From the NCBI GenBank assembly GCA_044239605.1, contig JBIIBC010000005.1, positions 32,424-96,423 of the forward strand: DNA of 64,000 nucleotides, read 5' to 3'. Made by a program: the position numbers and the translations under genes. Below the pieces are notes generated by a model. It was not told the origin of the DNA, ran no database searches, and was given only the letters and a program-made list of their open reading frames with translations. The stretch comes from Bacteroidia bacterium (GTDB lineage: Bacteria > Bacteroidota > Bacteroidia > UKL13-3). This document shows, piece after piece, positions 12,370 to 42,932 of the stretch (the first letter of the stretch is position 1; the number at the start of each line of letters is the position of its first letter).

Positions 12370-13137
12370 ATGATAAAAGAAGCAACATTAGAATACAATA
12401 CCGAACGAAATAAATTAATACTTTCGGAATACGGACGCAGTATTCAAAAAATGGTAGATTATGCTACCCAAATAGAAGACATTGAAAAACGCAAAAAAGT
12501 AGCTGACGAAATTTTAACTTTAATGGGTCAGCTTAACCCCCACTTACGCGATATTGCTGACTATAAACACAAACTATACGATCATTTATTCATTATTTCT
12601 GATTTTAAATTAGAGCTTGATTCGCCTTATCTAAAACCTACTAGAGAAACAGTTTTTGTTAAGCCCGAACCAATGAAATATCCGCAAAGCAAAATTTCAT
12701 ATAGGTTTTACGGTAAAAATATTCAAAACATGATTAACAAGGTTACTGAATTGCCCGAAGGTCCTTTCAAAACCTCTTATATCAATGCTATTGGTAGTTT
12801 TATGAAAACCAATTGCCGCAATTGGAACGATGAAGTAATTGGCGATGAGCAAATAATGGCTCACTTAGAACAACTAAGTGATGGCAAAATTCAAATTAAC
12901 GATTCGGAGGATATTGACTTTAAGGCGCAACAAATGCGCAGAATGAACAATAACCAAAACAACAATCACAGAAATAACAACAATCGTAATTTTAGAAATA
13001 ACAACAATAATAACAACCACCGCAACAACAATAATAACAATAACCGTAAACCAAATAACAATAACCCAAACAACAAAAATCCTACTTTAGGAAGTAATGA
13101 TAGCGGTTATAGAAAATTCAATAGTAAAGACAGATAA
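12370..13137 (+). CDS. DUF4290 domain protein with Asn-rich C-terminal tail
   Basis: The N-terminal LEYNTERNKLILSEYGRSIQKMVDYA is typical of DUF4290. The tail NNNQNNNHRNNNNRNFRNNNNNNNHRNNNNNNNRKPNNNNPNNKNP is low complexity. Confidence 0.7.
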   Translation: MIKEATLEYNTERNKLILSEYGRSIQKMVDYATQIEDIEKRKKVADEILTLMGQLNPHLRDIADYKHKLYDHLFIISDFKLELDSPYLKPTRETVFVKPEPMKYPQSKISYRFYGKNIQNMINKVTELPEGPFKTSYINAIGSFMKTNCRNWNDEVIGDEQIMAHLEQLSDGKIQINDSEDIDFKAQQMRRMNNNQNNNHRNNNNRNFRNNNNNNNHRNNNNNNNRKPNNNNPNNKNPTLGSNDSGYRKFNSKDR

Positions 13138-13150
13138 TTAAATTATTTCC

Positions 13151-14479
13151 ATGCATTTACAACGTATTATTTTCAACTTTAAAAATGGCATGGAAGCCCT
13201 ACTAACCAATAAGTTTAGGGCCTTATTAACTTCGCTTGGGATTATATTTGGAGTGGCAGCAGTTATAGCAATGCTTGCCATTGGTAATGGTGCTGAAAAA
13301 CAAATTTTAGAACAAATTAAACAAGTGGGTTCCAATAATATTGTTATAAAACCCATTATTAAAACCAAAGAAGAAGAAAAGCAATTGAAAGAAAGTGGTA
13401 TTGAACAAAAAAAGTTTAGCCCCGGTTTAAGTATGTACGATGCTGAAAACATTAGACAAGTGTTAACCGATGTAGAAGTAGTTAGCAGCGAAATTGAACA
13501 ACAAACTTTATTTATTAGATCAGGAATTAAACTTGGCGGCAAACTTGTTGGCGTAAGTAACGATTATTTCCATTTGCTTGATTTTTCATTAATAAGTGGT
13601 AACTTTTTCAGCGACTTTCAATTAGTAAATGCGCAGCCAGTTTGTATAATTGGCTCCAAAGTAGCCACCAAATTTTTTAATACAGAAGATCCAATTGGTA
13701 AAGAAATAAAATGCGGCAATAATTGGTTGAAAATTGTGGGTGTTTTAAATAATAAAAACGTAGATGAAGGCAACATGCAAAAGCTTTCTATCCGAAATGT
13801 TGACCTAGAAATATATACTCCCGTAAAAACATTTTTATTACGTTATAAAAACCGTGGTTTGGTAACTATTTCGGGCTTAAAAGCTTCGCAAAACCAAGAG
13901 GAAGGTAACAATCAAAATGCAACAGATAATAACTACCATCAATTAGATAGATTAGTGGTTAAGGTGGCCAAAAGTTCTGAAATTGAAGCTACAGTAGATG
14001 TATTGCAACGCATTTTATTGCGCAGGCATAATGGAGTGAACGATTTTGAAATTATTGTGCCTGAATTGCTTTTAAAACAAGAGCAAAAAACCAAAAAATT
14101 ATTCAATACCGTATTAGGAATTATAGCCTCAATATCGCTTTTAGTGGGCGGAATTGGTATTATGAATATTATGCTAGCAAGCGTTTTAGAACGTGTTAAA
14201 GAAATTGGTTTGCGCATGAGTATTGGAGCTAGTAAGCGCGATATTGTAATGCAATTTATGGCCGAAAGTGTAACTATTAGCGTTAGTGGAGGTATTATTG
14301 GTATTTTCTTAGGAATTGCCATCAGTTTAATCATTCAAGCAGCCACTGATATTGAAACAATTGTTTCACCAATAAGTGTATTTTTAAGTTTTACCATTTC
14401 AATTAGCGTTGGATTAGTGTTTGGTATACTGCCTGCCAAGCGCGCGGCAATGCAAGATCCAGCCGAGTGCTTACGATAA
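13151..14479 (+). CDS. ABC transporter permease, MacB/FtsX family
   Basis: It has an N-terminal TM segment, a large periplasmic domain and a C-terminal FtsX-type 3-TM bundle (GIGIMNIMLASVLERVKEIGLRMSIGA). Confidence 0.85.
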   Translation: MHLQRIIFNFKNGMEALLTNKFRALLTSLGIIFGVAAVIAMLAIGNGAEKQILEQIKQVGSNNIVIKPIIKTKEEEKQLKESGIEQKKFSPGLSMYDAENIRQVLTDVEVVSSEIEQQTLFIRSGIKLGGKLVGVSNDYFHLLDFSLISGNFFSDFQLVNAQPVCIIGSKVATKFFNTEDPIGKEIKCGNNWLKIVGVLNNKNVDEGNMQKLSIRNVDLEIYTPVKTFLLRYKNRGLVTISGLKASQNQEEGNNQNATDNNYHQLDRLVVKVAKSSEIEATVDVLQRILLRRHNGVNDFEIIVPELLLKQEQKTKKLFNTVLGIIASISLLVGGIGIMNIMLASVLERVKEIGLRMSIGASKRDIVMQFMAESVTISVSGGIIGIFLGIAISLIIQAATDIETIVSPISVFLSFTISISVGLVFGILPAKRAAMQDPAECLR

Positions 14480-14496
14480 TTCATTCAAAAAAATTT

Positions 14497-15939
14497 ATGC
14501 AAAAAATAGTCAATTATATTAATGGAGCATTAGTAGAACCTAATGCAAAAAGTTATTTAGACAATATAAATCCTGCTACAGGAAAAGTATATTCGCTTTG
14601 CCCTGATAGCGATGAAACCGATGTAGAACTAGCTTACCAAGCAGCAAACGCAGCTTTCCCTGAATGGAGCAATATGAGTGCCGATGGAAGAAGTAAAATT
14701 CTTTTAAAATTGGCTGCGCTAATGGAAGAAAATATCGAACAATTAGCCATCGCTGAAAGCATAGATCAAGGTAAACCGGTATGGTTAGCAAAGCTAGGTG
14801 AAATACCAAGAGCAGTTCAAAATATTCATTTTTTTGCTACCGCAATTGAGCATTATACTAGCGAGTCGCACTCTATGGGAAGCCACGCCATTAACTATAC
14901 TTTGCGCACGCCAATTGGAGTTGTAGGTTGTATCAGTCCTTGGAATTTACCTTTGTATTTATTTACTTGGAAAATAGCCCCTGCCCTTGCTGCTGGAAAT
15001 TGTGTGGTAGCCAAACCAAGCGAAGTTACTCCAATGACTGCTTACTTATTTTCTGAATTATGCATTCAAGCAGGAATGCCAAAAGGCGTTTTAAATATTG
15101 TTCATGGTTTGGGTGGAAAAGTAGGTTCTGCTATTGTTTCGCATCCTGGCATTTCAGTTATTTCATTTACAGGTGGAACCAAAACTGGTGCTGAAATAGC
15201 TAGAGTGGCTGCACCCATGTTCAAAAAACTATCGTTAGAATTAGGAGGAAAAAATCCAAATATCATTTTTGCTGATTGCGATTTCGAAAAAGCTGTGAGT
15301 GAAAGTGTTCGTTCATCGTTTACCAATCAAGGTGAAATATGTTTATGTGGCTCTCGTATTTTTATTGAAAAACCAATTTACGAAAAGTTTAAAGCAGCAT
15401 TTATTGAAAAAACCAAAACCATGAAAGTGGGCAATCCCCTACTCGATGATACTAAAGTGGGCGCCATTGCTAGCAAAATGCACTTCGAAAAAGTGTTAAG
15501 CTATGTTGATTTAGCCAAACAAGAAGGTGGAACCATTTTATTTGGAGGCAATAAAGTACAGCTTGATGGTGAAAATGCAGCAGGTTATTTTATGGAACCA
15601 ACCATTATAGAAGGTTTAGCGTATAACTGTAGAACTAACCAAGAAGAAATTTTTGGCCCTGTAGTTACCTTAACTCCATTTGAAACCAAAGAAGAAGTTT
15701 TGAAAATGGCTAATAGCACACAATATGGTTTAGCTGCTACCATTTGGACAGAAAATTTAAATACAGCTCATTACATGGCTGCACAAGTTAAAAGCGGAAT
15801 TATTTGGATAAACTGTTGGTTATTGCGCGATTTAAGAACTCCTTTTGGAGGCATGAAACAAAGCGGTGTAGGCAGAGAAGGTGGCTGGGAAGCACTTAGA
15901 TTTTTTACAGAACAAAAGAATGTTTGTATAAAATTATAA
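14497..15939 (+). CDS. NAD(P)-dependent aldehyde dehydrogenase
   Basis: ELGGKNP and FTNQGEICLCGSR (catalytic Cys) motifs are present. I chose the start at MQKIVNYING within track ORF 14467-15939. Confidence 0.9.
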   Translation: MQKIVNYINGALVEPNAKSYLDNINPATGKVYSLCPDSDETDVELAYQAANAAFPEWSNMSADGRSKILLKLAALMEENIEQLAIAESIDQGKPVWLAKLGEIPRAVQNIHFFATAIEHYTSESHSMGSHAINYTLRTPIGVVGCISPWNLPLYLFTWKIAPALAAGNCVVAKPSEVTPMTAYLFSELCIQAGMPKGVLNIVHGLGGKVGSAIVSHPGISVISFTGGTKTGAEIARVAAPMFKKLSLELGGKNPNIIFADCDFEKAVSESVRSSFTNQGEICLCGSRIFIEKPIYEKFKAAFIEKTKTMKVGNPLLDDTKVGAIASKMHFEKVLSYVDLAKQEGGTILFGGNKVQLDGENAAGYFMEPTIIEGLAYNCRTNQEEIFGPVVTLTPFETKEEVLKMANSTQYGLAATIWTENLNTAHYMAAQVKSGIIWINCWLLRDLRTPFGGMKQSGVGREGGWEALRFFTEQKNVCIKL

Positions 15940-33343: not shown

Positions 33344-33805
33344 ATGAAAAACATTTCAAAAAAAGATATTTTCTTTGTTGGTAACCAATTGGTTTTATTC
33401 CTAATTTATTTAATATCTACTCCTGCCTATCCACTAAAATATGATAGCAAAATAGCAGAGAATATCTTTTTTATTATAACTCTAGTAGGCATTTTATTAA
33501 TTGGGATTTCATTGCTTTTGCTCAACAAAAATTTAACACCTTTTCCTACCCCAAAACAAGATAGTGAATTAATAAAAACTGGAGTTTATAAAATTATACG
33601 TCATCCAATATACACTGGTTTAATACTGACTACATTTTTTTATGCGCTTTATTCACACAGTTTAGTAAAGATAGTCATAGCAATTATACTTTTTATATTG
33701 TTTTACTTTAAATCAAAATATGAAGAAATTTTATTGTGTGATAAGTTTCCTGAATATAATAATTATATAAAAAAAACATATAGATTTTTTCCTTTTATTA
33801 TTTAA
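33344..33805 (+). CDS. isoprenylcysteine carboxyl methyltransferase (ICMT)-family membrane methyltransferase
   Basis: The protein is multi-TM and carries the GVYKIIRHPIYTG motif. Confidence 0.7.
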   Translation: MKNISKKDIFFVGNQLVLFLIYLISTPAYPLKYDSKIAENIFFIITLVGILLIGISLLLLNKNLTPFPTPKQDSELIKTGVYKIIRHPIYTGLILTTFFYALYSHSLVKIVIAIILFILFYFKSKYEEILLCDKFPEYNNYIKKTYRFFPFII

Positions 33806-33816
33806 TTCCTTTATAC

Positions 33817-33845
33817 AAAAAGAGCCGTAAAAACGGCTTTTTTTG
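33817..33845. terminator. bidirectional terminator between convergent genes
   Basis: The stem AGCCGT/ACGGCT has an AAAA loop, with an A-run before it and a T-run after it. Confidence 0.75.
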
Positions 33846-33860
33846 TATAACTATAATTCA

Positions 33861-34472
33861 TTATTTTATTAAGGACAAACCTTCTAACGAAGAAGTATCA
33901 TTTGGTGCTAATAATAAAACTCTATTAAATAATTGTTTTGCTTCCTTATGTTTACTTAACCTGTAATTTGTCCACGCTAACATATGCAAACCATCATAAG
34001 TAAATGGATATAAATTAACCAATAATGTAAAACATTTATGTGCTTTTTCAAATAGTTTTCCATTGTAATAAATCACGCCTAAAGCATATAATGCAAAACT
34101 ATTATTGGGATCTAGTTTTAAAACAGCTTGGTATTGAAAAACTACCTCATCCCATTCGTTTAAAACTGATAATGGATAAATATAGCCAAACTTTGCTTCA
34201 AGCGAAAAAGGCATTAATTCCATAGCTATTTTATAATATTGTTTTGATTCTTTTTGTAAACCAGCACAATAATTTAGCCAACCAAGTCGCAAATTAATTT
34301 CGTATGATGATGGGCTGTAAACTTCCATCATTTTACTTATGGCAGTTGTGTAATTACTTTTGTTTTCAAACCCTAAGCTAGAAGCAAAAGCAGTTTTAAC
34401 TTTATCATCTTGCGCATGGGCAAATCCGATAATAGTTATTGTAATAAAAATGGATAAAATTGATTTTTTCAT
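33861..34472 (-). CDS. secreted TPR-repeat protein (last gene of cluster)
   Basis: It has a signal peptide (MKKSILSIFITITIIGFAHAQ) and TPR-like repeats (YYKIAMELMP, AVLKLDPNNSFALYALGVIYY). Its start lies 1 nt after the stop of the upstream gene. Confidence 0.6.
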   Translation of the reverse strand: MKKSILSIFITITIIGFAHAQDDKVKTAFASSLGFENKSNYTTAISKMMEVYSPSSYEINLRLGWLNYCAGLQKESKQYYKIAMELMPFSLEAKFGYIYPLSVLNEWDEVVFQYQAVLKLDPNNSFALYALGVIYYNGKLFEKAHKCFTLLVNLYPFTYDGLHMLAWTNYRLSKHKEAKQLFNRVLLLAPNDTSSLEGLSLIK

Positions 34473-34473
34473 A

Positions 34474-35367
34474 TTATAAATTGTATTTGATTCCTAAAAA
34501 AATAGAGTTAAAGTGATAATCTGTTTTTGATAAGTTATATTGTTTTCTTTCAAATTGATAAACACCAAACAGATATAAATTATTAGCAAATTCGTACCTT
34601 AAATTAATATTTGTTCTATCGTAAGATTTATCAATAGAGTTATAAATTACAAATCCATTTTGGTCACTATAATTTACTTCATTAGTATAAAAATAATCAG
34701 CACTTATATAAACTTCCTCGGTAATAGCAAAACTAACAGATGGCTTATAAAAGGTACTAGCATTACCATTATTTATAAAATGATATAGACCAAAGCTAAA
34801 AACTAATGCTTCATTATTTTTTGTATCAAATAACACCTCCCCACCTACCTGAAATTGATTTTGTTTTTCAGATAAATTATTAAGATTGCTATAAGCAATT
34901 AACGGTTTAATATATAATTTTTTAAAAGCTACCGTTGCATGCAATAAACCTAAATAATTATTGTTATTAATTATTGAATTTGTAATGCGCGCCCTGCTAT
35001 TTAAATAGGAACCAGCAAAACCTAATTTTAACTTACCATTTACTTTGTATTCAAAATTGGCATAATATCCTGACTGGCTAACATTTCCCCAAAAATTATC
35101 TTGACTCAAATAATTGTAAGAATGGAATAGCGTTAGCTTCTTCCTAAGTTGGTGTCGCAAACCTATCAAACCCATATGCAAACTGCCAATGGTATCCATA
35201 TTGCTACTCCATTTAACCCCTGATTCAACATATATTTGATTAAATAAATTAGTTTTTCCTAGCCTTGCTATTCCAGTTGGTTTTATGAAACTACCATTTA
35301 AATTTACCTCATTCGCCATAATAGGTTCAAGGTATAAAAACATTATTACTATTATTATACTTCGCAT
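34474..35367 (-). CDS. putative outer-membrane beta-barrel protein
   Basis: The N-terminus is hydrophobic and the sequence is rich in alternating aromatic/polar beta-strand patterns throughout (YHFINNG, YLFGVYQFE, IFLGIKYNL). It overlaps the upstream gene by 13 nt. Confidence 0.45.
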   Translation of the reverse strand: MRSIIIVIMFLYLEPIMANEVNLNGSFIKPTGIARLGKTNLFNQIYVESGVKWSSNMDTIGSLHMGLIGLRHQLRKKLTLFHSYNYLSQDNFWGNVSQSGYYANFEYKVNGKLKLGFAGSYLNSRARITNSIINNNNYLGLLHATVAFKKLYIKPLIAYSNLNNLSEKQNQFQVGGEVLFDTKNNEALVFSFGLYHFINNGNASTFYKPSVSFAITEEVYISADYFYTNEVNYSDQNGFVIYNSIDKSYDRTNINLRYEFANNLYLFGVYQFERKQYNLSKTDYHFNSIFLGIKYNL

Positions 35368-37556
35368 GTTGCCTCAAATTTAACACCATTAATAGTTGAT
35401 TCGAATAGATGTATTTTAGCATCTGACAAGGTAATTGTACTTGTTAAATGTTTATTAACCATAAAGGCAGATTTTAGATTGATATTGCTCTGTAATACAA
35501 TTTTTCTCGTATACAAATAATCATCAATTGAAAAATATGTTAACCTGTATTCTGCTTTAAGTAAATTTTTAAAAGGTAAAATAAAATCATTCGCAAGCCT
35601 ACTCAAAGGTTTGAAAACATCATATATTGGCAATGAATCACTTATAACCATATCCTGATAATAGCTAAACAATATTTTATGAGCATTAATATAAAAACTA
35701 TATAGTAAACTATTTTTATTCCCTTCAAATGAAGTGAAATAAAATTGATGACTATCAATACAAAACCAAGCTGTTGAGTTAGTGTTGTAACAATATATAT
35801 AAGAGTAATTATTAATATCGGTAAATACTTCCCATTTTACTAACTCCGATTTTCCGTTTTCGAATTTTAAATCCCAATTCAATTTTTTTCCTGGAATAAA
35901 GTAAAAGGCGCTTTTCAGTAATGAATTAATTGTGGCATTAGCTACAATATCATTCTCTTTCGGAATACCATTACTGTAATAAACGTATTTATCATTCTCC
36001 TTTACTATATAATTACTTAATGGATATTTTATAGTAGTTGCGGCTAAAACTGCTGTACTTTGAAGCTGAAAATGAAGGTGTGGCTCTGGAGAACGACCTG
36101 AACTCCCATTGCTAGCCAAAACCTGACCTTTGTATATATAATCGTTTATAGCCACTTTGAAACTTTCCTTTTTAATATGGCTAATTTTACTGTACAGAAA
36201 TTCTGCATGTTTAATGATTATAGTGTTACCCCAATTTTGTTGTAAATTAACATCACCAATTAAATTATCATCAATACCATCAATAATATCAACTACATAT
36301 CCATCTGCAGGAGCCAAAATGGGTAATGTGTAGCAATAATAATCTTCTAGATTTGTTCCAGGTAATCTAAATGTTTTTAATTCATCATCCTTAATAACAA
36401 AATCCCAAGCATATTGATATTCATTTTTATGGGTAATATTTCCATTTTGTCCTTGCGAAATATACCACTCTCCATAAAATGGCAAACCTATTTTCAGATA
36501 AACCTCATCATTAAACCTTGCTTTTTCATTTAGGTATCTGTACAAATTTTTTTCTGGAGAAAATAATTGAACTTGAGTTAATTTAAGTTTATCAGCCTTC
36601 ACTCTATTGTATAAAAAGTAAAGAACCATTATAACCATTATATTGAAAGGTAATGACAAAACAGGCAATCCAAAAGAACCTAAAATAGTAGCTGAAGCTG
36701 CAATAATCATTGAAATTATGGGCGCGGCAACAATAACCAATAAAAATGAATATGAATTTGATAACAAAAAATACCCACCAATGGCTATAGCAGCTAAAAT
36801 AAAATTGAAACCTATGTAGGTATAGTTAATAAGGCCAATATTACCTTGAAGTAAAATAAAAAAATAGTATCCACTCAAAAAACCTACTAAAGAAAGCATA
36901 AATGCAATTCGTGAGAAAATTAATAAGCCAATTACGATTAAAATCCCTGCAACAATATTATATTGAAAAATAATTGCCCCTAATGATTTTAAATATACAT
37001 CAATGATTTGAGGTAATTCAATATTATCGTAGAAATGATATGCATTCACCATATCGCTCCCTCCTAGTTTCATTAAGTCATTATAAATAAAAATACTACT
37101 ATCGCTATCTATTAATGATGTAAAATGTGGAGTAGCCAAAATTATTAACCAAACAGTAAACAGGAATGGTAAACTTAAAAATGGTAATTTTTTATTGGCT
37201 TGAAGTCCAGCAATAACAATGGTTAACACGAAACATAAAAAACTAGCAAATGCTGAAAATAATAACAATTGCCAACTTGGTGCATAAGTATAACCTATAA
37301 ACAAACCAACCAATAAACTATTAAAACCATAATAACCTTTTTGAATAAAATGATGGTTATAATTTAAAATATTGGCGAAAAAATTAGTTAGAACAACTGA
37401 TAACAAACCAAACAAACCAACATAAATATTAATAAATGAGGCCAAAATAACCAAGGAAGCAAGCCAATAACTATCAGCCAAAAATAGTTGAGAGTAACTA
37501 TTTACCAATCCCTGGGTATATAAATTAAAATAATATGATAACTTGGCTTTGTTCAA
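35355..37556 (-). CDS. fusion protein: urea-transporter (UT)-like 10-TM domain + M23 peptidase domain + about 230-aa C-terminal domain of unknown function
   Basis: UT-like motifs are SQLFLADSYWLASLVILASF and KGYYGFNSLLVGLFIG, with a second repeat half. The M23 region is GNTIIIKH...GQVLASNGSSGRSPEPHLHFQ. The TTG start follows directly after an in-frame stop. Confidence 0.65.
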   Translation of the reverse strand: MNKAKLSYYFNLYTQGLVNSYSQLFLADSYWLASLVILASFINIYVGLFGLLSVVLTNFFANILNYNHHFIQKGYYGFNSLLVGLFIGYTYAPSWQLLLFSAFASFLCFVLTIVIAGLQANKKLPFLSLPFLFTVWLIILATPHFTSLIDSDSSIFIYNDLMKLGGSDMVNAYHFYDNIELPQIIDVYLKSLGAIIFQYNIVAGILIVIGLLIFSRIAFMLSLVGFLSGYYFFILLQGNIGLINYTYIGFNFILAAIAIGGYFLLSNSYSFLLVIVAAPIISMIIAASATILGSFGLPVLSLPFNIMVIMVLYFLYNRVKADKLKLTQVQLFSPEKNLYRYLNEKARFNDEVYLKIGLPFYGEWYISQGQNGNITHKNEYQYAWDFVIKDDELKTFRLPGTNLEDYYCYTLPILAPADGYVVDIIDGIDDNLIGDVNLQQNWGNTIIIKHAEFLYSKISHIKKESFKVAINDYIYKGQVLASNGSSGRSPEPHLHFQLQSTAVLAATTIKYPLSNYIVKENDKYVYYSNGIPKENDIVANATINSLLKSAFYFIPGKKLNWDLKFENGKSELVKWEVFTDINNYSYIYCYNTNSTAWFCIDSHQFYFTSFEGNKNSLLYSFYINAHKILFSYYQDMVISDSLPIYDVFKPLSRLANDFILPFKNLLKAEYRLTYFSIDDYLYTRKIVLQSNINLKSAFMVNKHLTSTITLSDAKIHLFESTINGVKFEATCEV

Positions 37557-37629
37557 CTTTTAGTTTTACGATTAAAATAAAAAATACATTTGGCTAGTAT
37601 TAACATTTCATCATTAATAGAAACAGTCC

Positions 37630-37674
37630 TTTATAAAAAAGATGTCGAACTTAATAAAAAAGTTCAACATCTTT
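37630..37674 (-). terminator. terminator-like hairpin between decarboxylase gene and UT-M23 gene
   Basis: A 13-bp stem AAAGATGTTGAAC/GTTCGACATCTTT (one G-U pair, minus-strand sense) is followed by a T-rich tract. It may attenuate rather than fully terminate. Confidence 0.5.
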
Positions 37675-37696
37675 TGTGATTATTTATCTAAATAAA

Positions 37697-39055
37697 TTAT
37701 AACTTAAATTCACTTAAATAGCTAGGTGTTACTTCTAAACTATTCATGTATTCTAACGTTTCTTTTTTTCTAATTAAATGAGGCTTTCCTTCCATATCAA
37801 TAATCACCACATTTGGTCTCATTGAAATAAACTGCATCCACTGAGTCATGTTATATGCACCAACAGTATGTACAACAACATTATCGCCTTTTTTCATTGG
37901 TGGTAATGTTACATTTTCTCTTATAACATCAATATTCATGCACAATGGACCGTAAATAACAGAATCTTCTGTATAGTGGCTAAACTCTTGAGCTGGGGAT
38001 ATTTTATGTTCGTACCAAAATGAGGTAAATAATAAATTTACACCAAAATCCATAATGGTAGCCTTACGTCCATCACTTAGACGTTTATTAGCTAAAACAG
38101 TTCCAAGTAAATAACCTGCATCATCCACCAACGATCGGCCACTTTCTAGTATTAATAATGGCAATTCATCTTTACTGTAATCAGAATTTAGTAATGCTGA
38201 GCAAATTGCTTCTGCATAATCATCAAATGTAGGAACTGTATCAGCACCCATTAAATATGAACCTTTTAAAGTATTACGAGACGCAAATCCACCTCCCATA
38301 TCAATGTAAGAAATATTTTTTCCAAACTTGGCTTTTATATGGAACGCTAAATCAGAAAGCTTGGTAGCAGCCACCGCATAAGCACTTGGTGTTAACATAA
38401 AAGTACCAATATGTGAATGCAAACCTATTAAGTCCATTTTATCAGTTAAGATGATTTTATTAATTGCATCCCATGCTTGCCCACTTTCATAATTAAATCC
38501 AAACCTGTCCCACATAGGATAAACTCCAGTATCCATGTTAACCCGTATAGCAACTTTAGGACGTTTTTTTAGTTCTTCTGTTAATTCAATAATTCTATAA
38601 AGTTCATCAAGATGGTCAATATGAATCATTGATTCATTATTAATAGCTAGGATTAAATCCTCATCGGTTTTATCAGGACCATTGAATATAATTTTATTTC
38701 CTGGCACACCATTCAATAATGCTTTATTATACTCAAATCCAGAAACAACTTCCGACCAACTTCCCTCTTGATGAAACACATTACAAATTGCATTATTATA
38801 ATGCGTTTTGTAACTCCAAGCAAACTGTACTTTCGGGTAACGAGTTGTGAAAGCACGAACTGCATCCTTATATGTTTTACGAATTGTTTGCTCACTCATT
38901 ACAAATAAAGGAGAACCAAATTCGGCTATTAAATCTTTAACTTTAGCTCCATCAATATTTGTAAATGGAGTATATTCTGTACGAGTACCGTACTTGTTCA
39001 TTACGCCAGTATTTAACTTTTTAATTACTGGTCTTTCATATCTAATTTTTTCCAT
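37697..39055 (-). CDS. PLP-dependent decarboxylase, Orn/DAP/Arg decarboxylase (fold III) family
   Basis: Family motifs are present: the Lys region FAWSYKTHYN, HSHIGT, DMGGGF, ESGRSLV and the active-site Cys region YGPLCMNIDV. Confidence 0.8.
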   Translation of the reverse strand: MEKIRYERPVIKKLNTGVMNKYGTRTEYTPFTNIDGAKVKDLIAEFGSPLFVMSEQTIRKTYKDAVRAFTTRYPKVQFAWSYKTHYNNAICNVFHQEGSWSEVVSGFEYNKALLNGVPGNKIIFNGPDKTDEDLILAINNESMIHIDHLDELYRIIELTEELKKRPKVAIRVNMDTGVYPMWDRFGFNYESGQAWDAINKIILTDKMDLIGLHSHIGTFMLTPSAYAVAATKLSDLAFHIKAKFGKNISYIDMGGGFASRNTLKGSYLMGADTVPTFDDYAEAICSALLNSDYSKDELPLLILESGRSLVDDAGYLLGTVLANKRLSDGRKATIMDFGVNLLFTSFWYEHKISPAQEFSHYTEDSVIYGPLCMNIDVIRENVTLPPMKKGDNVVVHTVGAYNMTQWMQFISMRPNVVIIDMEGKPHLIRKKETLEYMNSLEVTPSYLSEFKL

Positions 39056-39210
39056 TGTTATATTTGTTGCAGCTGGCTGCTGGCTCTCAGCAGCTAGCTA
39101 ATTTTGTTTACTTGGTTGAATAATATTTTACTTTTTGTATTTCTATTTGCTAGAAGCAAGAGGTCAATAGCTTGAAGCTTGAAGCCACAGGCTAGATTCC
39201 AGAAGCTAAT

Positions 39211-40257
39211 TTAAAGCTCCCCTACCGTTGAAATTTGCTCAAATTCCTTTAAATCAACAATCATATCATAAGAATACCTAATGAACATTTTACCTATTTC
39301 GTAATTTCCAAAAGGTTCAACAGATTTTCCTAAAGCTAATTTAACCAATGCCTCGGGCTGATTATGGCCACAACCAGCAGCTAAATATACCCACGCTGGA
39401 AAACGTGGATTTATTTCAAGTAAGTAGTATTTGTTTTCAGCAGTTTTAATAAACTCTAGCTCCATTCCACCTCTCCATTTTGATGAAGAAATTACATTTT
39501 TAGCAATATTTACTAATTCATCATCATCTAATGAAATACCTGCCCAAGCCTTGCCTTTATCGGTAATAAATAATTTACGCATAGGTACTGCACTAATTGC
39601 ATTTCCTTTTCCGTCTCCAAGTGCGGTAACATTTACTTCACTTCCAAATACATATTCTTGAATAATAATAGGTAAACCCCATTTAGCACTCAATTTATTA
39701 AAATAATTAGCAACTTGTTCTGGATTATATGCAATGTAAGCTTCATAAAACTTTCCTTTAACCACCATTGGGTATGAAAATTCAATTGCTATAGCACTTA
39801 TCTCATTGGTACTAAACATCATTTTACTGTAAGGAACGCTTACTCCATGCTTTTGCCCAAATTCAAATAAATTAGCTTTATGTCTTTCATCAAACTGTTC
39901 TTGAGTTGGTAAAAACATACTAATTCCAAGTTCTGTTTTTAACCGTTGCTCAAGTTTCATGAAATTAGCTAATTCAGCATCAAAATTAGGTATTACCACA
40001 TCTACATTTTCTTGATTATTGATATAACTTAAACGTTCCATCAATGAATCAACTCCTGCACTTGGTAATGGTATTTGATATGACTTATTCACTAAATCGT
40101 GCATGTATAAACCTGGCTCAAGTGTTTCATAACTTAACCCAATTATGTTAACATCAAAATCTTTACTTTCTTTTAATGCACGAATTACGGGTATTCCTGG
40201 TCCAGGACTATCAATATTATTAAGTCCAGATACTGCGACTGTTATTTTAGGTTTCAT
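39211..40257 (-). CDS. ATP-grasp carboxylate-amine ligase family protein
   Basis: It shows the ATP-grasp core (YPMVVKGKFYEAY, IIIQEYVFGSEVNV, MELEFIK...YLLEINPRFPAW). Confidence 0.8.
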   Translation of the reverse strand: MKPKITVAVSGLNNIDSPGPGIPVIRALKESKDFDVNIIGLSYETLEPGLYMHDLVNKSYQIPLPSAGVDSLMERLSYINNQENVDVVIPNFDAELANFMKLEQRLKTELGISMFLPTQEQFDERHKANLFEFGQKHGVSVPYSKMMFSTNEISAIAIEFSYPMVVKGKFYEAYIAYNPEQVANYFNKLSAKWGLPIIIQEYVFGSEVNVTALGDGKGNAISAVPMRKLFITDKGKAWAGISLDDDELVNIAKNVISSSKWRGGMELEFIKTAENKYYLLEINPRFPAWVYLAAGCGHNQPEALVKLALGKSVEPFGNYEIGKMFIRYSYDMIVDLKEFEQISTVGEL

Positions 40258-40277
40258 AGTATATATTAAATTTATTA

Positions 40278-40526
40278 CTATTCCCCCTCGTCACCTACTT
40301 GATTATTTTGAAGCATCATTACAAAATCGTAATAATCTTTTTCAAAGGTAGATTCATCAGCATTGTATTTACTTAAAATAGCTTTTCTGATATCATCTTT
40401 ACCCTTTTCGTCCTTTAGCATTCTTATTATTTCTAATCCAATTGGATTAGTGCTAAACGAATCACCTGTAGTTGGATTGAATATAAATCCAGATTCGCTA
40501 ATGGCTACATTTTTTTTTATTTTCAT
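40278..40526 (-). CDS. PqqD-family (RRE-like) small protein
   Basis: 82 aa. FIFNPTTGDSFSTNPIGLEIIRMLKDEKGKDDIRKAILSKYN...FEKDYYDFVMMLQNN has the pattern of a PqqD-like peptide-binding winged helix. Confidence 0.65.
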   Translation of the reverse strand: MKIKKNVAISESGFIFNPTTGDSFSTNPIGLEIIRMLKDEKGKDDIRKAILSKYNADESTFEKDYYDFVMMLQNNQVGDEGE

Positions 40527-40653: not shown

Positions 40654-42783
40654 TTAATTTTTAATACACTTAAACGTTTGAACGTTTGAGCCTGATTCAA
40701 TTTGAAGAATATAAATGCCATTTGATAGTTTTTGTACCTCTGGCATTTCAATAAGATTATCGCCTATAAATAGATTGGCTTCATAATTCACTACCTTACA
40801 ACCCCAATTATTTAATAAAGTAATATTGGCTTTAGTGCCTGTTTCAGAGATTATATTTATATTTAAAAAATTAGTAAATGGATTTGGACTTACCACTACT
40901 TTTTCACTAGTAATTTTTGTAACTTTTTCAACTCTACTGTAACTGAAATTACCATCAAAATCAATTTGTTTGATTCTGTAGTATAAAATGTTATTTGAAA
41001 TAATTGAACCAATTTCGTCTGTAAAAGAATATGTTTTTACACTATTGCTATTTCCTGCACCATTAACTTCATTAATTTTTATCCAGTTAGTGCCATCATA
41101 ACTTTTTTCTACTTCAAATTTATTGTTATTTACTTCACTTGCAGTTTTCCAATTTATTAGCACATTGGCAGGATTTACAAATGCGGCATTAAATGACAAC
41201 CATTTTACTGGTAAAGACACAATTCCACTATTAAAGTAAGTTGATGTATTGTAATTAGATATGTTTGAAACTCCATTATACTCCACAATTGCAAAGTAAT
41301 AATTGGTAGTATTATTTAAACCTGTAATATTGCAAGAACTACCCGTTCCATTGTATACCACAAAACAATTATTTCCAATATTAGAACCATTTCCAAAAAC
41401 TGAATTAGCGGTATAAGCCACAGTATCTATTGGTAAAGAATTAACCGCACTTCCAACTTTACAAATAACCAATCTCCTTATACCATTACCCGTTTTCCAA
41501 TTTAAGTTTACTGTATTTATGCCATTATTGGTATATGAAAAATCAGTTGATGCGATAGTAGGTTCATTATGAATTGAACCACCCCATATTCGTTGAGCAT
41601 ATTGCGGACTGTCAATGAATGGATTCCTATTTCCTTGAATTGCAGCTATAGCATTATTTCTTTTTATTTCCTTATCACTCACAGGGTCTAGGTTATGCCA
41701 ACTTAATAGTACACTTAACTGCCAAGGTTTAAAAACAGGATAGTTATTCCCTGCAAGAATATCTGAAGCATTGCCATTTGACAACCAAGAAGCAATTAGG
41801 TTTTCATACCTTGTTGCCATAAAAAAATAGCCTCTTGCTAAGTCACCTTTATATTCATCAATTGGCTCAAAAACAACTCCTGTATAACCAAAATTATTAG
41901 CACTGGTACCTAATTTCCCTCCATAAAGGCTAGTATTACTAGCATTTGTTACATACCCATATGGAAAGTTGCTTCTCAAACCATTTACTTTTCCATCCGA
42001 GGCAAATACGTGATTTAATTCGGTTTGCATCGGAGTAGCGGAATTAAACCAACTTTGAGGGAATGAATGCTCCCTGTTATAACAATCACCTTCTGTAGAA
42101 TAGGTACCACATTGATTACTACCCATGGTGTATTCATAAGGAGAAGCCTGGTCTAACCTTGTACTGTAGATGTCCCAAACTTTTCCATTTGGCTGAACAT
42201 CGGTAGTAGCGTATGCATTCCAAATAGCTGAGTAACTAATTGATGTTACTCCAGAAGAAATTTTATTATAAAGTGCCGTTTTTAAAGCTGCACCCCTAAC
42301 ATTTCCTATGCTATTAAAATAAGTGTTAGCGCCTGATGGAACTGTTGTTGCTATGCATGTTCCGCTAACTAAAACACTAACGGAAGCAGAACCAATACTG
42401 CTATTTAAAATTGAATTTGAAGTACTTGGATAAAGTGCAACTAAAGACGGACTAAAACGAACAAATATTTTGGTATTAGCGATTGTGCCGGCCGAAGGTG
42501 TCAGAGTAATTTTATTACTGTAACCATAATTATAATTTAATGAAACCTCAAAGGCGGTTGAGGCAGAAATCACGATTGGAGCCGTAAGTAAAGTTCCAGA
42601 AACCGAATAATTTAAACTTGAGGAACTATTATATGGATATACATTTCCAAATGATGGAAGTGACAAAGTGGTTGTTGTTATAGAACCTGCTTTTATATAA
42701 TTACAAAGCACTATTAAAAGTATGAATAGGAATGTTTTTGCTCTCACTTGGCAAATATAAATAAATATTTGAGCAACAAACAT
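40654..42783 (-). CDS. secreted endonuclease I-family nuclease with T9SS type A C-terminal sorting domain
   Basis: The endonuclease I core is YNREHSFPQSWF, HVFASDGKVNGLRSNFPYG and NRNPFIDSPQYA. The C-terminal VVSPNPFTNFLNINI...GIYILQIESGSNVQTFKCIKN is a T9SS CTD. Confidence 0.8.
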   Translation of the reverse strand: MFVAQIFIYICQVRAKTFLFILLIVLCNYIKAGSITTTTLSLPSFGNVYPYNSSSSLNYSVSGTLLTAPIVISASTAFEVSLNYNYGYSNKITLTPSAGTIANTKIFVRFSPSLVALYPSTSNSILNSSIGSASVSVLVSGTCIATTVPSGANTYFNSIGNVRGAALKTALYNKISSGVTSISYSAIWNAYATTDVQPNGKVWDIYSTRLDQASPYEYTMGSNQCGTYSTEGDCYNREHSFPQSWFNSATPMQTELNHVFASDGKVNGLRSNFPYGYVTNASNTSLYGGKLGTSANNFGYTGVVFEPIDEYKGDLARGYFFMATRYENLIASWLSNGNASDILAGNNYPVFKPWQLSVLLSWHNLDPVSDKEIKRNNAIAAIQGNRNPFIDSPQYAQRIWGGSIHNEPTIASTDFSYTNNGINTVNLNWKTGNGIRRLVICKVGSAVNSLPIDTVAYTANSVFGNGSNIGNNCFVVYNGTGSSCNITGLNNTTNYYFAIVEYNGVSNISNYNTSTYFNSGIVSLPVKWLSFNAAFVNPANVLINWKTASEVNNNKFEVEKSYDGTNWIKINEVNGAGNSNSVKTYSFTDEIGSIISNNILYYRIKQIDFDGNFSYSRVEKVTKITSEKVVVSPNPFTNFLNINIISETGTKANITLLNNWGCKVVNYEANLFIGDNLIEMPEVQKLSNGIYILQIESGSNVQTFKCIKN

Positions 42784-42812: not shown

Positions 42813-42850
42813 AAATAAAAAAGGCTTCACAGAATTTCTGTAAAGCCTTT
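42813..42850 (-). terminator. Rho-independent terminator after tRNA
   Basis: The stem AAGGCTTTACAG/CTGTGAAGCCTT has one mismatch or wobble and is followed by a T-run on the minus strand. Confidence 0.7.
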
Positions 42851-42855
42851 TTAAT

Positions 42856-42932
42856 TGGTAGCGGGGAGCAGAATCGAACTGCCGACCTCAGGGTTATGAA
42901 TCCTGTGCTCTAACCATCTGAGCTACCCCGCC
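42856..42932 (-). tRNA. tRNA with anticodon CAT (Met; lysidine-modified Ile2 cannot be excluded)
   Basis: The minus-strand sequence GGCGGGGTAGCTCAGATGGTTAGAGCACAGGATTCATAACCCTGAGGTCGGCAGTTCGATTCTGCTCCCCGCTACCA folds as a cloverleaf. The T-arm GGTTCGATTC-like element and an encoded CCA are present. Confidence 0.9.

Follow-up and report, generated by a model that had tools for sequence, protein, structure and literature searches.

A widespread, previously undescribed operon joining a PqqD-like protein, an ATP-grasp ligase and a PLP decarboxylase to a urea-channel fusion and envelope proteins

In the biosynthesis of the AHBA side chain of butirosin, the carrier BtrI, the ATP-grasp ligase BtrJ, the decarboxylase BtrK and the deprotection enzyme BtrG handle an amino acid tethered by its distal group. 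BtrK is a fold-III enzyme of the DAPDC clade, BtrJ carries out two ligations, and the later amide cleavage removes a protecting group. The rhizoferrin system FslA/FslC (FigA/FigC), to which the SbnH and AcsE steps are related, also ligates first and then decarboxylates the conjugate. FigC, SbnH, AcsE, MccE and BtrK belong to a clade that acts on conjugated amino acids (PMC7857480). The NRPS-independent amides fungal E-64 and closthioamide combine ATP-grasp ligation with a PLP decarboxylase that gives the amine end. In RiPP pathways (PQQ, lasso peptides, mycofactocin), a small standalone PqqD protein is encoded beside, and sometimes fused to, a modifying enzyme, and the cluster includes a peptidase. 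A small protein gene also lies beside an ATP-grasp gene in the LysW/LysX system.

An operon that resembles each of these systems in part occurs in many uncultured bacteria, and is described here from a 64,000-nucleotide stretch of a Bacteroidia genome (the window). A preliminary description of the window had listed six genes, which an ORF check found at exactly the positions given, all on the minus strand; an HMM scan likewise confirmed their domain assignments (PF05402, ATP-grasp, Orn_Arg_deC_N, UT, Peptidase_M23 and TPR_2). The genes were also said to be tightly packed. This holds for the 13-nt overlap of the UT-M23 and outer-membrane (OM) barrel genes (35355-35367) and the 1-nt gap between the barrel and TPR genes (34473), but not for two longer spacers, one of 155 nt at 39056-39210 and one of 140 nt at 37557-37696. 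The overlap suggests that UT-M23, OM barrel and TPR protein are translationally coupled. The combination had not been recognized as a described pathway, and nothing found since contradicts this: literature searches returned no paper describing a ligase–decarboxylase–urea-channel system, NCBIfam gave only sub-threshold matches for the operon proteins and no curated family covering the system, and a PADLOC scan gave no match.

Comparative sequence evidence marks the six genes as a real, strongly conserved operon and one functional unit. Following the suggestion to look for synteny in relatives, the block was found syntenic in 13/13 genome loci, and all six genes are kept in 8/8 more distant contexts, whose flanks are unrelated. 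Among 80 metagenome loci seeded solely by the ATP-grasp motif (GC 31–78%), the genes almost always run PqqD, ATP-grasp, PLP decarboxylase, UT fusion, with PqqD present in 69/73, the decarboxylase in 58/58 and UT in 51/53. The synteny is reciprocal, as seeding by UT-M23 or by ATP-grasp recovers the block, and the clustering is far beyond chance. Two forms are found in the metagenome loci, in which ATP-grasp number and the domain fused to UT are strictly correlated. Type A has a single ATP-grasp with UT–M23 (37/37), and its sister form, type B, has tandem ATP-grasp modules with UT–sirtuin (SIR2; 10/10). UT+SIR2 and UT+SIR2+GNAT proteins occupy the same operon position as UT-M23, with sirtuin motifs intact. 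The operon of the window represents type A, as found in Bacteroidota, of a multi-gene system that is widespread and previously undescribed. Its invariant core consists of a PqqD-fold adaptor, one or two ATP-grasp modules, an FslC/BtrK-clade decarboxylase, an inner-membrane UT-fold channel whose cytoplasmic C-terminus is fused to an amide-cleaving domain, and a secreted TPR protein, to which the OM beta-barrel is added in Bacteroidota. Rosetta-stone fusions join PqqD to the ATP-grasp N-terminus (P0522) and ATP-grasp to the PLP decarboxylase (P0473). The preliminary description had correctly seen a conserved unit but missed its breadth, the two architectures, these fusions and the third domain of the UT-M23 protein.

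The PqqD-like (RRE-fold) adaptor of 82 aa (40278-40526) matches PF05402 at 1.4e-9 (38.6 bits, cut-off 23.4), and among NCBIfam models it comes closest to RiPP chaperones. It is standalone in 290 homologues, with N6, A8, S10, G13, F16, P18, G21, S23, N27, G30, I33 and a helix E62-K63-D64..D67-F68 invariant. The carrier role of LysW type once suggested for it is not borne out. Its C-terminus is acidic among close relatives, but across homologues the tail varies in length and sequence, ending in E, A, N, D, G, K or H, and this variable tail with no fixed final residue is not LysW-like. The conserved C-terminal Glu motif of LysW is missing, and the fold is that of PqqD, not the LysW zinc ribbon. 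BtrI, similarly, is a phosphopantetheinyl ACP, whereas the operon's small protein has no PP-binding signature. Unlike RiPP pathways, the operon lacks a radical-SAM enzyme, a lasso cyclase and YcaO, and we know of no RiPP class with such partner enzymes (a CPS-like ATP-grasp and a fold-III decarboxylase) or with a UT channel. It also lacks a precursor gene. The earlier failure to find a precursor-peptide ORF was reproduced in the operon spacers of the window, which hold no conserved small ORF, and extended to ~95 related loci, which hold no conserved same-strand small ORF; all small-ORF families there are antisense shadows of neighbours. This search is blind to precursors <15 aa, too divergent to align or encoded by unlinked genes.

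The ATP-grasp ligase (39211-40257), CPS-like or PRK12767-like, constitutes its own family. It matches ATPgrasp_Ter (7e-11) and ATP-grasp_3 (1.3e-6), but every Pfam and NCBIfam match is under the equivalog cut-off. PDB searches gave no characterised close relative, the best match being the structural-genomics entry 2pn1 (2e-9). The Mg/ATP motif (E266, E268, E281-x-N283-P-R285) is invariant, and relatives at E<=1e-30 form 278 clusters (50% identity). By Pfam and NCBIfam the enzyme is not of the graspetide type. Within NCBIfam, Ddl matches are marginal (E 1e-3) and, in a further difference from LysX, LysX/RimK matches are absent. The two ATP-grasp modules of some variants recall the two ligations of BtrJ.

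The fold-III (alanine-racemase-fold) PLP decarboxylase (37697-39055) matches Orn_Arg_deC_N (1.9e-29) and Orn_DAP_Arg_deC (9.4e-13) and contains the PLP lysine, Lys83. It falls in the FigC/SbnH/AcsE/MccE/BtrK clade, closest by sequence and structure to the rhizoferrin enzyme: the best PDB match is FslC (7kh2, 8.7e-55), against only 3.5e-25 for BtrK. Its 'GPLCMNID' and 'LLFTSFWY' motifs match the Met355 (Met-after-Cys) and Thr-for-Arg changes of FigC rather than the Glu and Arg343 of DAPDC, and these specificity motifs are kept down to 35% identity. Because the FslC/FigC specificity changes are shared, the substrate is probably an already-conjugated amino acid, and the analogy drawn earlier to butirosin, in which a ligase and a decarboxylase act on a tethered amino acid, is reasonable. 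The DAP-type decarboxylation proposed at the same time is contradicted. Both DAP-recognising residues are replaced, and a DAP decarboxylase was rejected on this ground and on the lysA model TIGR01048 (219 against a cut-off of 298). The rhizoferrin parallel also has its limits: NF041039 scores 228 against a cut-off of 500, the operon's ligase is an ATP-grasp rather than a NIS (IucA/IucC) synthetase, and genes for MFS export and TonB-type receptor uptake are not linked. Among genomes, the decarboxylase is 94-100% identical where UT-M23 is only 72-78% identical.

The fusion protein (35355-37556) has so far been published only as a listed domain combination (PMC12998343). Its urea-transporter-fold channel domain (residues 17-314; 36615-37508) matches PF03253 at 3.9e-55 (187.5 bits), is modelled by AF2 with pLDDT 88.8 and superposes on D. 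vulgaris UT 3k3f with TM 0.83; both twin signature motifs read LPxxSLPF, and the central loop is acidic. The M23 metallopeptidase domain (residues ~364-505; 36042-36467; Pfam match 5.1e-12 over 412-500) has sequence and fold matches in the PDB to DipM, Csd, ShyA, lysostaphin and LasA. No other segment of the fusion is as conserved (40% invariant columns), and the catalytic residues H376, D385, H450, H460, H493 and H495 (H493xH495) are invariant. The first zinc motif of this domain reads H376-x8-D385, not HxxxD. A third, beta-rich domain of 228 residues (506-733; 35358-36041; AF2 pLDDT 90.8, pTM 0.87) is found in most UT-M23 loci. It has no Pfam match and no significant PDB match, only weak LolA-like ones (E 2e-3, TM 0.3-0.38). 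The M23 domain is almost certainly cytoplasmic, because it comes after the C-terminus of the UT fold, which lies in the cytoplasm, without a further TM helix (none follows H302-316 in the model), and because the sister form has there an NAD-dependent sirtuin, which NAD+ necessarily places in the cytoplasm. Two further features favour this topology: in alignment the K/R-rich linker of the fusion matches the cytoplasmic tail of human UT-A, and the central loop of the UT domain has its acidic character. C39-ABC exporters offer an architectural analogy, having a hydrolase on the translocator's cytoplasmic face and cleavage coupled to passage; here, however, the translocator is a passive urea-channel fold rather than an ABC pump, with M23 or a sirtuin as its hydrolase.

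The product of 34474-35367, described earlier as a putative OM barrel, is retained as a probable outer-membrane beta-barrel on the basis of sub-threshold Pfam matches (Autotransporter 4.8e-5, BBP2_2 3.6e-3) together with a signal peptide, a C-terminus that resembles the beta-signal of OMPs, and strand-like alternation in all orthologues. The window encodes a barrel-only version; orthologues elsewhere (402-513 aa) have an N-terminal TPR and weak OMP_b-brl/DUF2490 matches. The secreted TPR protein (33861-34472; TPR_2 8.5e-17) has an SPase I signal, with signal peptides in all orthologues. Both architectures include such a protein, encoded downstream in type A (23/29) and upstream in type B.

The reading we prefer, tentatively and with a probability of about 0.4, is that the system ligates, decarboxylates and then cleaves an amide at the mouth of the UT pore. 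Cytoplasmic ATP-grasp and PqqD would link a carboxylate through an amide bond to an alpha-amino acid's side chain, leaving alpha-NH2 and alpha-COOH free. The decarboxylase would remove the alpha-carboxyl of the conjugate to give an N-acyl-amine, and M23, tethered under the UT pore, would hydrolyse an amide in this conjugate, perhaps for release, deprotection or trimming. A small uncharged product could then cross the inner membrane through the pore, and the periplasmic TPR protein and OM barrel might handle it further. PqqD and ATP-grasp are one polypeptide in some lineages, the decarboxylase pocket matches enzymes of already-conjugated amino acids, and butirosin (7ru7/2j66), E-64 and closthioamide are precedents for ATP-grasp and PLP-decarboxylase amide chemistry. 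None of these is a full parallel. Butirosin lacks the UT fusion, TPR protein and OM barrel, and the operon lacks BtrH/O/V and aminoglycoside genes; E-64 and closthioamide come from unrelated organisms and enzyme subfamilies without PqqD, channel fusion or envelope proteins. Against this reading, UT pores admit only small neutral solutes, which limits exportable products, and the UT domain could import instead, or merely anchor and trimerise the complex; its signature motifs are degenerate in sirtuin-fused variants, and the PqqD/ATP-grasp-PLPdc core of L024/L025 has no UT at all. The ATP-grasp is without a characterised close relative. Were M23 or the sirtuin simply to undo the ATP-grasp ligation, the pathway as a whole would seem futile, except where the acyl group serves for protection or as a carrier.

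A PqqD/RRE fold normally implies a peptide substrate, and the lack of a linked peptide gene weighs on the preferred reading as well as on an unlikely PQQ- or mycofactocin-like one, a RiPP or a peptide-derived small molecule, in which PqqD would bind a ribosomal peptide encoded elsewhere. ATP-grasp and decarboxylase would modify it, one possibility being that a diamino acid is ligated to the carboxylate of the C-terminus or of an acidic side chain and then decarboxylated, and M23, a Gly-Gly-type endopeptidase fold, would excise leader or modified residue before export. The PqqD match above the Pfam cut-off, its RiPP-chaperone neighbours and a PqqD–ATP-grasp fusion exactly like RRE fusions to RiPP enzymes all favour such a peptide, as do the joining of a peptidase to a membrane protein, which recalls peptidase-containing exporters, the action of clade member MccE on a peptide conjugate, and LytS/LytTR pairs directly upstream in ~14 loci. 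A UT pore cannot, however, let a peptide through, the ATP-grasp does not belong to the graspetide type, the ~95 loci yielded no candidate, and compact operons (83-nt upstream gaps, overlapping genes) leave no room for one. The preferred reading also has a specific chemical version, itself unlikely, in which N(epsilon/delta)-acyl-Lys or -Orn, made by the ATP-grasp, is decarboxylated to N-acyl-cadaverine or -putrescine and M23 or sirtuin frees the diamine at the membrane. FslC, with the same pocket changes, decarboxylates N5-acyl-ornithine, and sirtuins are acyl-lysine deacylases, whose substrate side chain N-acyl-cadaverine would mimic. The GNAT fused in the L023 variant could acetylate the diamine, which resembles diamine N-acetyltransferase logic. 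PylC makes N-epsilon-acyl-lysine, and the ATP-grasp has weak PylC-like N-domain matches; these are below threshold, though, and PylC is absent from the PDB search results. Free diamines carry charge and would probably not get through a UT pore, and the route would waste energy that ordinary Lys/Orn decarboxylases save.

UT channels are bidirectional facilitators, and the well-conserved UT fold, the distantly CPS-like ATP-grasp and the presence of the operon in streamlined freshwater genomes would suit import of a small neutral (urea- or amide-like) nitrogen compound through OM barrel, TPR and UT for cytoplasmic processing. We consider this improbable, as it is hard to see what a conjugate-specific decarboxylase or a PqqD adaptor would do in assimilating a urea-sized solute, and urease, amidase and allophanate hydrolase genes are not linked in any context listed. 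Least probable is the proposal in the preliminary description of peptidoglycan stem-peptide editing or recycling across both membranes by Ddl-like ligation, DAP-type decarboxylation and M23 cross-link cleavage. All three superfamilies include peptidoglycan-related members, M23 has weak NCBIfam matches to peptidoglycan endopeptidases, and peptide-linked DAP with a free D-centre is formally a 'distally acylated' substrate. The proposal is nevertheless very unlikely because M23 is almost certainly cytoplasmic and interchangeable with a sirtuin; the missing DAP-binding Arg and Glu, the failed lysA cut-off, the marginal Ddl matches and the lack of linked Mur, Ldc and AmpG-type genes also speak against it.

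A terminator- or attenuator-like hairpin in the decarboxylase/UT-M23 spacer (37637-37675, minus strand) had been noted as possibly dividing the block into two units of transcription. The hairpin itself is confirmed (arms 37637-37652 and 37660-37675, 16 bp, dG -18.8 kcal/mol, z -5.2, then a U-run), but a general split is not supported, since it is confined to the window's clade and the genes of other lineages overlap or lie 3-40 nt apart. It is kept in L001, L002, L011, L010 and L013, degenerate in L005/L006, and absent from loci with a 3-44 nt decarboxylase/UT spacer. The ATP-grasp/decarboxylase spacer shows a lineage-specific expansion, most other lineages having 20-40 nt there or overlapping genes; it contains a GC-rich palindrome (39071-39099), single-copy in the window, ~15 nt upstream of the decarboxylase start. 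A bidirectional terminator hairpin (33811-33850) closes the operon.

The six open reading frames of the operon (33861-40526, minus strand) lie exactly where the preliminary description had placed them. From 5′ to 3′ they encode a PqqD-like protein, an ATP-grasp protein, a PLP decarboxylase, a fusion of a urea-transporter-fold channel domain (UT) with an M23 metallopeptidase domain, an outer-membrane (OM) barrel candidate and a TPR protein. The reported 13-nt overlap and 1-nt gap are both right, although gaps of 140 and 155 nt break up the tight packing that had been described. The domain calls are backed by a Pfam scan: PqqD (PF05402, 1.4e-9, above the cut-off), ATP-grasp (ATPgrasp_Ter, 7e-11), fold-III PLP decarboxylase (1.9e-29 and 9.4e-13), the fusion of UT (PF03253, 187.5 bits, 3.9e-55) with M23 (5.1e-12), and TPR. 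The fifth product is a putative OM beta-barrel; every orthologue has a signal peptide together with amphipathic, strand-like alternation and a C-terminal beta-signal of the OMP type, although matches to curated families (Autotransporter, BBP2_2, OMP_b-brl, DUF2490) are sub-threshold. The TPR protein, whose ‘...EGLxLIK’ end is conserved in Bacteroidota and not elsewhere, was considered as the modified substrate, but no supporting evidence was found.

That the six genes form one unit is borne out by their arrangement in related genomes. A genome scan seeded on UT-M23 recovered 13 loci, all from uncultured Bacteroidota MAGs (two apparently mis-binned), and the gene order is identical in 13/13, with flanks that differ in the more distant loci. 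The contigs labelled ‘Candidatus Methylacidiphilales’ (L004) and ‘uncultured Bifidobacterium’ (L009) carry a Bacteroidota-type operon and are probably mis-binned, since their enzymes are 89-98% identical to those of the window. Eight further contexts, on long metagenome contigs or in MAGs of Chitinophagales, Flavobacteriales and Bacteroidales, keep the block at ~45-70% identity among unrelated neighbours, and the genes often overlap. Among relatives the decarboxylase is strikingly constrained, with 94-100% identity where UT-M23 has 72-78% and the barrel ~50%. One lineage (L020, 9031-9867) has an extra gene between those for the decarboxylase and UT-M23, encoding a 278-aa member of the IF-2B/MtnA family (a sugar-phosphate isomerase family), which may hint at SAM/MTA-derived chemistry or be incidental. 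Genes are also inserted inside the operon in L060 (7031-7831, 9200-9967) and L061 (5993-6793); the inserts encode two proteins, one of 266 aa whose C-terminus resembles a T9SS tail and one of 255 aa that is secreted.

The operon is abundant. An ATP-grasp profile search over 1.84 billion representatives returned 278 clusters (50% identity, E<=1e-30), many of which are tandem double ATP-grasps, while UT-M23 forms ~4,000 clusters at 90% identity. A metagenome scan with one ATP-grasp motif gave 80 loci of freshwater, soil and marine origin (GC 0.31-0.78), annotated with home-made HMMs. Among loci on contigs long enough to judge each feature, PqqD is upstream in 69/73, the decarboxylase downstream in 58/58, UT present in 51/53, a TPR gene downstream in 23/29 and the OM barrel present in 13/29. 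A single ATP-grasp occurs with M23 (type A) in all 37 loci judged, and a tandem ATP-grasp with a sirtuin domain, SIR2 (type B), in all 10. By these counts and contexts, therefore, the operon in the window is type A of a system that has its core in widely differing genomes, and in which the amide-cleaving domain on the UT channel is exchanged between forms. At 70% GC, L023 encodes a TPR protein, a PqqD-ATP-grasp fusion, a second ATP-grasp-like protein, the decarboxylase and a UT-SIR2-GNAT fusion, and L026 a secreted TPR protein, PqqD, a tandem ATP-grasp, the decarboxylase and UT-SIR2. Two loci of 65% GC (L024/L025) have PqqD and an ATP-grasp-decarboxylase fusion without UT. Downstream of the fusion, these two loci encode a soluble protein of 637 aa (12670-14583) with no significant Pfam match and a faintly cyclase-like C-terminus, and giant TPR, HEAT-repeat and TonB_C-like genes lie upstream. 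Both kinds of fusion are represented among the ATP-grasp clusters (PqqD-ATP-grasp, P0522; ATP-grasp-decarboxylase, P0473). The limit of the orthologous ATP-grasp group is marked by P0441, a homologue at 40% identity in a polysaccharide locus, and not every homologue at ~40% identity belongs to the system. This paralogue lies in a surface-polysaccharide-type locus (L027/L028, 7442-14474) whose neighbouring genes encode an MBOAT protein, an LB_356-family protein, an M1 peptidase and glycosyltransferases, possibly a separate amino-acid-decoration system.

The ATP-grasp protein has intact Mg/ATP motifs. The top-scoring matches are to 2pn1, a structural-genomics entry, and to carbamoyl-phosphate synthetase, and a profile search of the PDB found no closer characterised relatives. 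The PqqD-like protein matches PqqD alone in Pfam, and its homologues are small standalone proteins whose conserved surface falls within the beta-sheet/alpha1 region and within a helix that reads ‘FEKDxxDF’. The natural PqqD-ATP-grasp fusion shows the two to act together. The ‘...GDEGE’ tail of the PqqD-like protein had prompted comparison with LysW, which bears a conserved C-terminal Glu motif. However, the tail varies in length and sequence, and its last residue across 82 loci is D in 12, E in 11, K in 11, A in 8, R in 8 and others elsewhere, which excludes a LysW-like carrier with a C-terminal Glu. The LysW/LysX analogy of the preliminary description fails on the ligase as well, as Pfam/NCBIfam matches of the ATP-grasp protein are limited to ATPgrasp_Ter, ATP-grasp_3 and PRK12767-like models, with no LysX/RimK model among them.

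The nearest solved relatives of the decarboxylase are FslC/FigC, the N-citrylornithine decarboxylase of rhizoferrin synthesis (8.7e-55), followed by the diaminopimelate (DAP) decarboxylase (DAPDC) of M. jannaschii (6.6e-47) and BtrK of butirosin synthesis (7ru7/2j66, 3.5e-25). It scores 219.4 bits against the lysA model TIGR01048 (equivalog cut-off 297.9) and 228.3 bits against the FslC/FigC model NF041039 (cut-off 500). The PLP lysine and other cofactor motifs are intact. Its ‘GPLCMNID’ aligns with ‘GGLCESSD’ of DAPDC and ‘LLFTSFWY’ with ‘MMRPAMY’, and neither of the residues that contact the distal DAP centre (Mj R343 on the specificity helix and the acidic residue beside the catalytic Cys) is present. 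The substitutions are those of FigC: ‘CES’ is replaced by ‘CMN’, placing Met after the catalytic Cys, and ‘RPxxY’ by ‘TSxxY’, placing Thr at the DAPDC Arg. This signature is kept in all variants, down to 35% identity in sirtuin-type loci. The FigC study assigns the same meaning to these two specificity positions and groups FigC with SbnH, AcsE, MccE and BtrK, enzymes that each decarboxylate an amino-acid moiety once it is attached to a larger scaffold (PMC7857480). Given the FigC-type replacement of the DAP-binding residues and the chemistry of that clade, the substrate is very probably a side-chain-conjugated amino acid rather than DAP. With those residues replaced and the score under the lysA cut-off, the DAP-type decarboxylation suggested earlier does not hold. 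In contrast to FslC/FigC, the partner here is an ATP-grasp (58/58 loci), and no NIS (IucA/IucC) synthetase or siderophore transport gene occurs among Pfam-annotated neighbours in 12 contexts. The butirosin logic proposed in the preliminary description stands in part: the fold-III decarboxylase belongs to the DAPDC/BtrK clade, though FslC is closer, but the phosphopantetheinyl carrier is missing, with no PP-binding gene in any listed context. A C-terminal ‘VPxHL’ tail was considered and rejected as a docking site for PqqD: M. jannaschii DAPDC carries it too, which assigns it to the fold.

The AlphaFold model of the fusion protein is confident (pLDDT 88.8) and comprises a UT fold, an M23 fold and a separate beta domain. 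The UT domain shares the fold of UT channels, which have 10 TM helices in two inverted repeats (TM-score 0.83 to 3k3f). Its twin pore signatures read LPxxSLPF vs LPxxTxPF, and Ser takes the place of Thr in ≥90% of sequences; the signature motifs are degenerate in sirtuin-fused variants. The UT domain scores 108.7 against the bacterial Yut model TIGR03441 (equivalog cut-off 274.6). Conservation within the fusion protein is highest in M23, where H376, D385, H450, H460, H493 and H495 are invariant (HxH being H493-L-H495), and its first zinc motif is an invariant H376-x8-D385 rather than the canonical HxxxD. Wider spacing of this motif than HxxxD is known from LasA-type M23A peptidases, and LasA is among the fold matches of the domain. 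The C-terminal beta domain (228 residues) has no significant match; a LolA-like fold was set aside, with weak matches only (TM-score <0.4). The M23 domain is very probably cytoplasmic, because in the modelled topology the last helix of UT is also the last TM helix of the protein, so that M23 extends from the cytoplasmic UT C-terminus. Likewise, the K/R-rich linker can be aligned to the tail of human UT-A, which is cytoplasmic, the UT central loop is acidic, and in type B the same position is held by a sirtuin whose NAD-binding, catalytic-His and zinc motifs are all intact, a domain that can work only in the cytoplasm. Such a placement makes a role in cleaving periplasmic cross-links very unlikely.

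A model of ligation, decarboxylation and cleavage at a pore is given a probability of about 0.4. ATP-grasp and PqqD would link an alpha-amino acid, through its side chain, into an amide, the decarboxylase would convert the conjugate to an N-acyl-amine, and the M23 domain (in type B, the sirtuin) would cleave an amide beneath the UT pore. The small neutral product would then cross the inner membrane via UT and pass to the TPR protein and OM barrel. More tentatively, the operon may represent an unrecognised, multi-lineage, trans-envelope ‘make-and-release’ machine, in which an RRE-like PqqD guides the ATP-grasp and decarboxylase on a conjugated amino acid and the pore-fused M23 or sirtuin frees a new small neutral metabolite into the UT pore, towards the periplasmic TPR protein and OM barrel. 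A protected-diamine version of the ligation-decarboxylation-cleavage model seems rather improbable. The chance of uptake and assimilation is smaller again; the fusion does share the fold of urea channels.

A RiPP with an unlinked precursor, or a peptide-derived metabolite, would accord with a PqqD-fold protein that adjoins or is fused with the modifying enzyme, as in pathways with a PqqD-type RRE, but is unlikely. No rSAM/SPASM, lasso cyclase, YcaO or graspetide-type ATP-grasp occurs in the cluster or listed neighbours. The absence of a precursor ORF from the window spacers, noted in the preliminary description, was confirmed and extends to the family: no conserved same-strand small ORF (15-90 aa) lies in or beside the cluster in ~95 loci, where family-wide clustering gave antisense shadows only. 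The compact operons of relatives leave no space for a precursor gene, and enlarged spacers (up to 725 nt) hold only unconserved ORFs and repeats. Editing of peptidoglycan stem peptides, also raised earlier, is highly improbable, with a decarboxylase that is not DAP-type and an M23 domain whose predicted cytoplasmic location lacks access to the sacculus; the domain does share the HxH motif and catalytic His of M23 endopeptidases. RiPP, LysW, butirosin, LysA, FslC/NIS and peptidoglycan-M23 systems are each contradicted by at least one defining feature, and PADLOC matched none of the six proteins to a known anti-phage defence system. In the literature searched, no paper pairs ‘ATP-grasp’ or ‘PqqD’ with ‘urea transporter’, and UT-M23 is mentioned once in the literature found, purely as a domain combination (PMC12998343). 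The combination is thus, as first suspected, not a described pathway. Source annotations of its components are generic or wrong, such as ‘urea transporter’ or ‘carbamoyl-phosphate synthase large subunit’.

If the model, or its make-and-release reading, is right, the system would represent a new logic of biosynthesis and export, with a use of the bacterial UT fold unrelated to urea nutrition, an M23 peptidase at work in the cytoplasm for the first time, a PqqD/RRE domain active outside classical RiPP pathways and possibly a new signal or small metabolite from environmental Bacteroidota. Clear handles for experiments come from the existence of two architectures (M23 vs sirtuin; one vs two ATP-grasps) and from the natural fusions. 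A co-oriented pair of a LytS-type histidine kinase and a LytTR response regulator lies directly upstream of PqqD in L014 (7884-9511), L017 (7756-9524) and ~12 metagenome loci (e.g. L057, L063, L068, L089, L105), and downstream in L019/L022. As the pair is directly upstream in a minority of (type A) loci and missing from the window's clade, it was rejected as an obligate component. Because such pairs recur, the released metabolite could be a diffusible signal.

The hairpin between the decarboxylase and UT-M23 genes, which had been suggested as a possible divide in the operon, does exist (stem of 16 bp, dG -18.8 kcal/mol, z -5.2, U-run after it), but it is kept solely within the window's clade and was rejected as a general operon boundary. 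The operon ends at a clean hairpin acting as a bidirectional terminator on both strands (33811-33850), shared with a convergent gene for an ICMT/PEMT-like membrane methyltransferase (33344-33805, plus strand) that is kept in the nearest relatives only. A GC-rich palindrome (39071-39099), occurring once in the window, lies in the spacer between the ATP-grasp and decarboxylase genes. In relatives this spacer is enlarged (81-307 nt) and contains GC-rich or tandem repeats of other kinds (L012, 5187-5280; L003/L004), and in L003 the spacer between the decarboxylase and UT-M23 genes is as long as 725 nt; such repeats look like insertions rather than coding sequence. An Rfam search of the window and seven related loci found no riboswitch or other known RNA in the cluster, and in L003 a Flavo-1 sRNA (RF01705, 48.7 bits; 13781-13872) lies directly 3′ of the TPR gene. 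The gene directly upstream of the operon (40654-42783, minus strand) encodes a protein of 709 aa that combines an Endonuclease I domain with a C-terminal T9SS sorting domain; it is kept in the closest relatives only and is therefore placed outside the system; T9SS-cargo genes lie <10 kb from the operon in several other contexts too. Just upstream of the endonuclease gene are a tRNA-Met (CAT) gene (42856-42932, minus strand) and then a hairpin with 21-nt arms (42814-42856).
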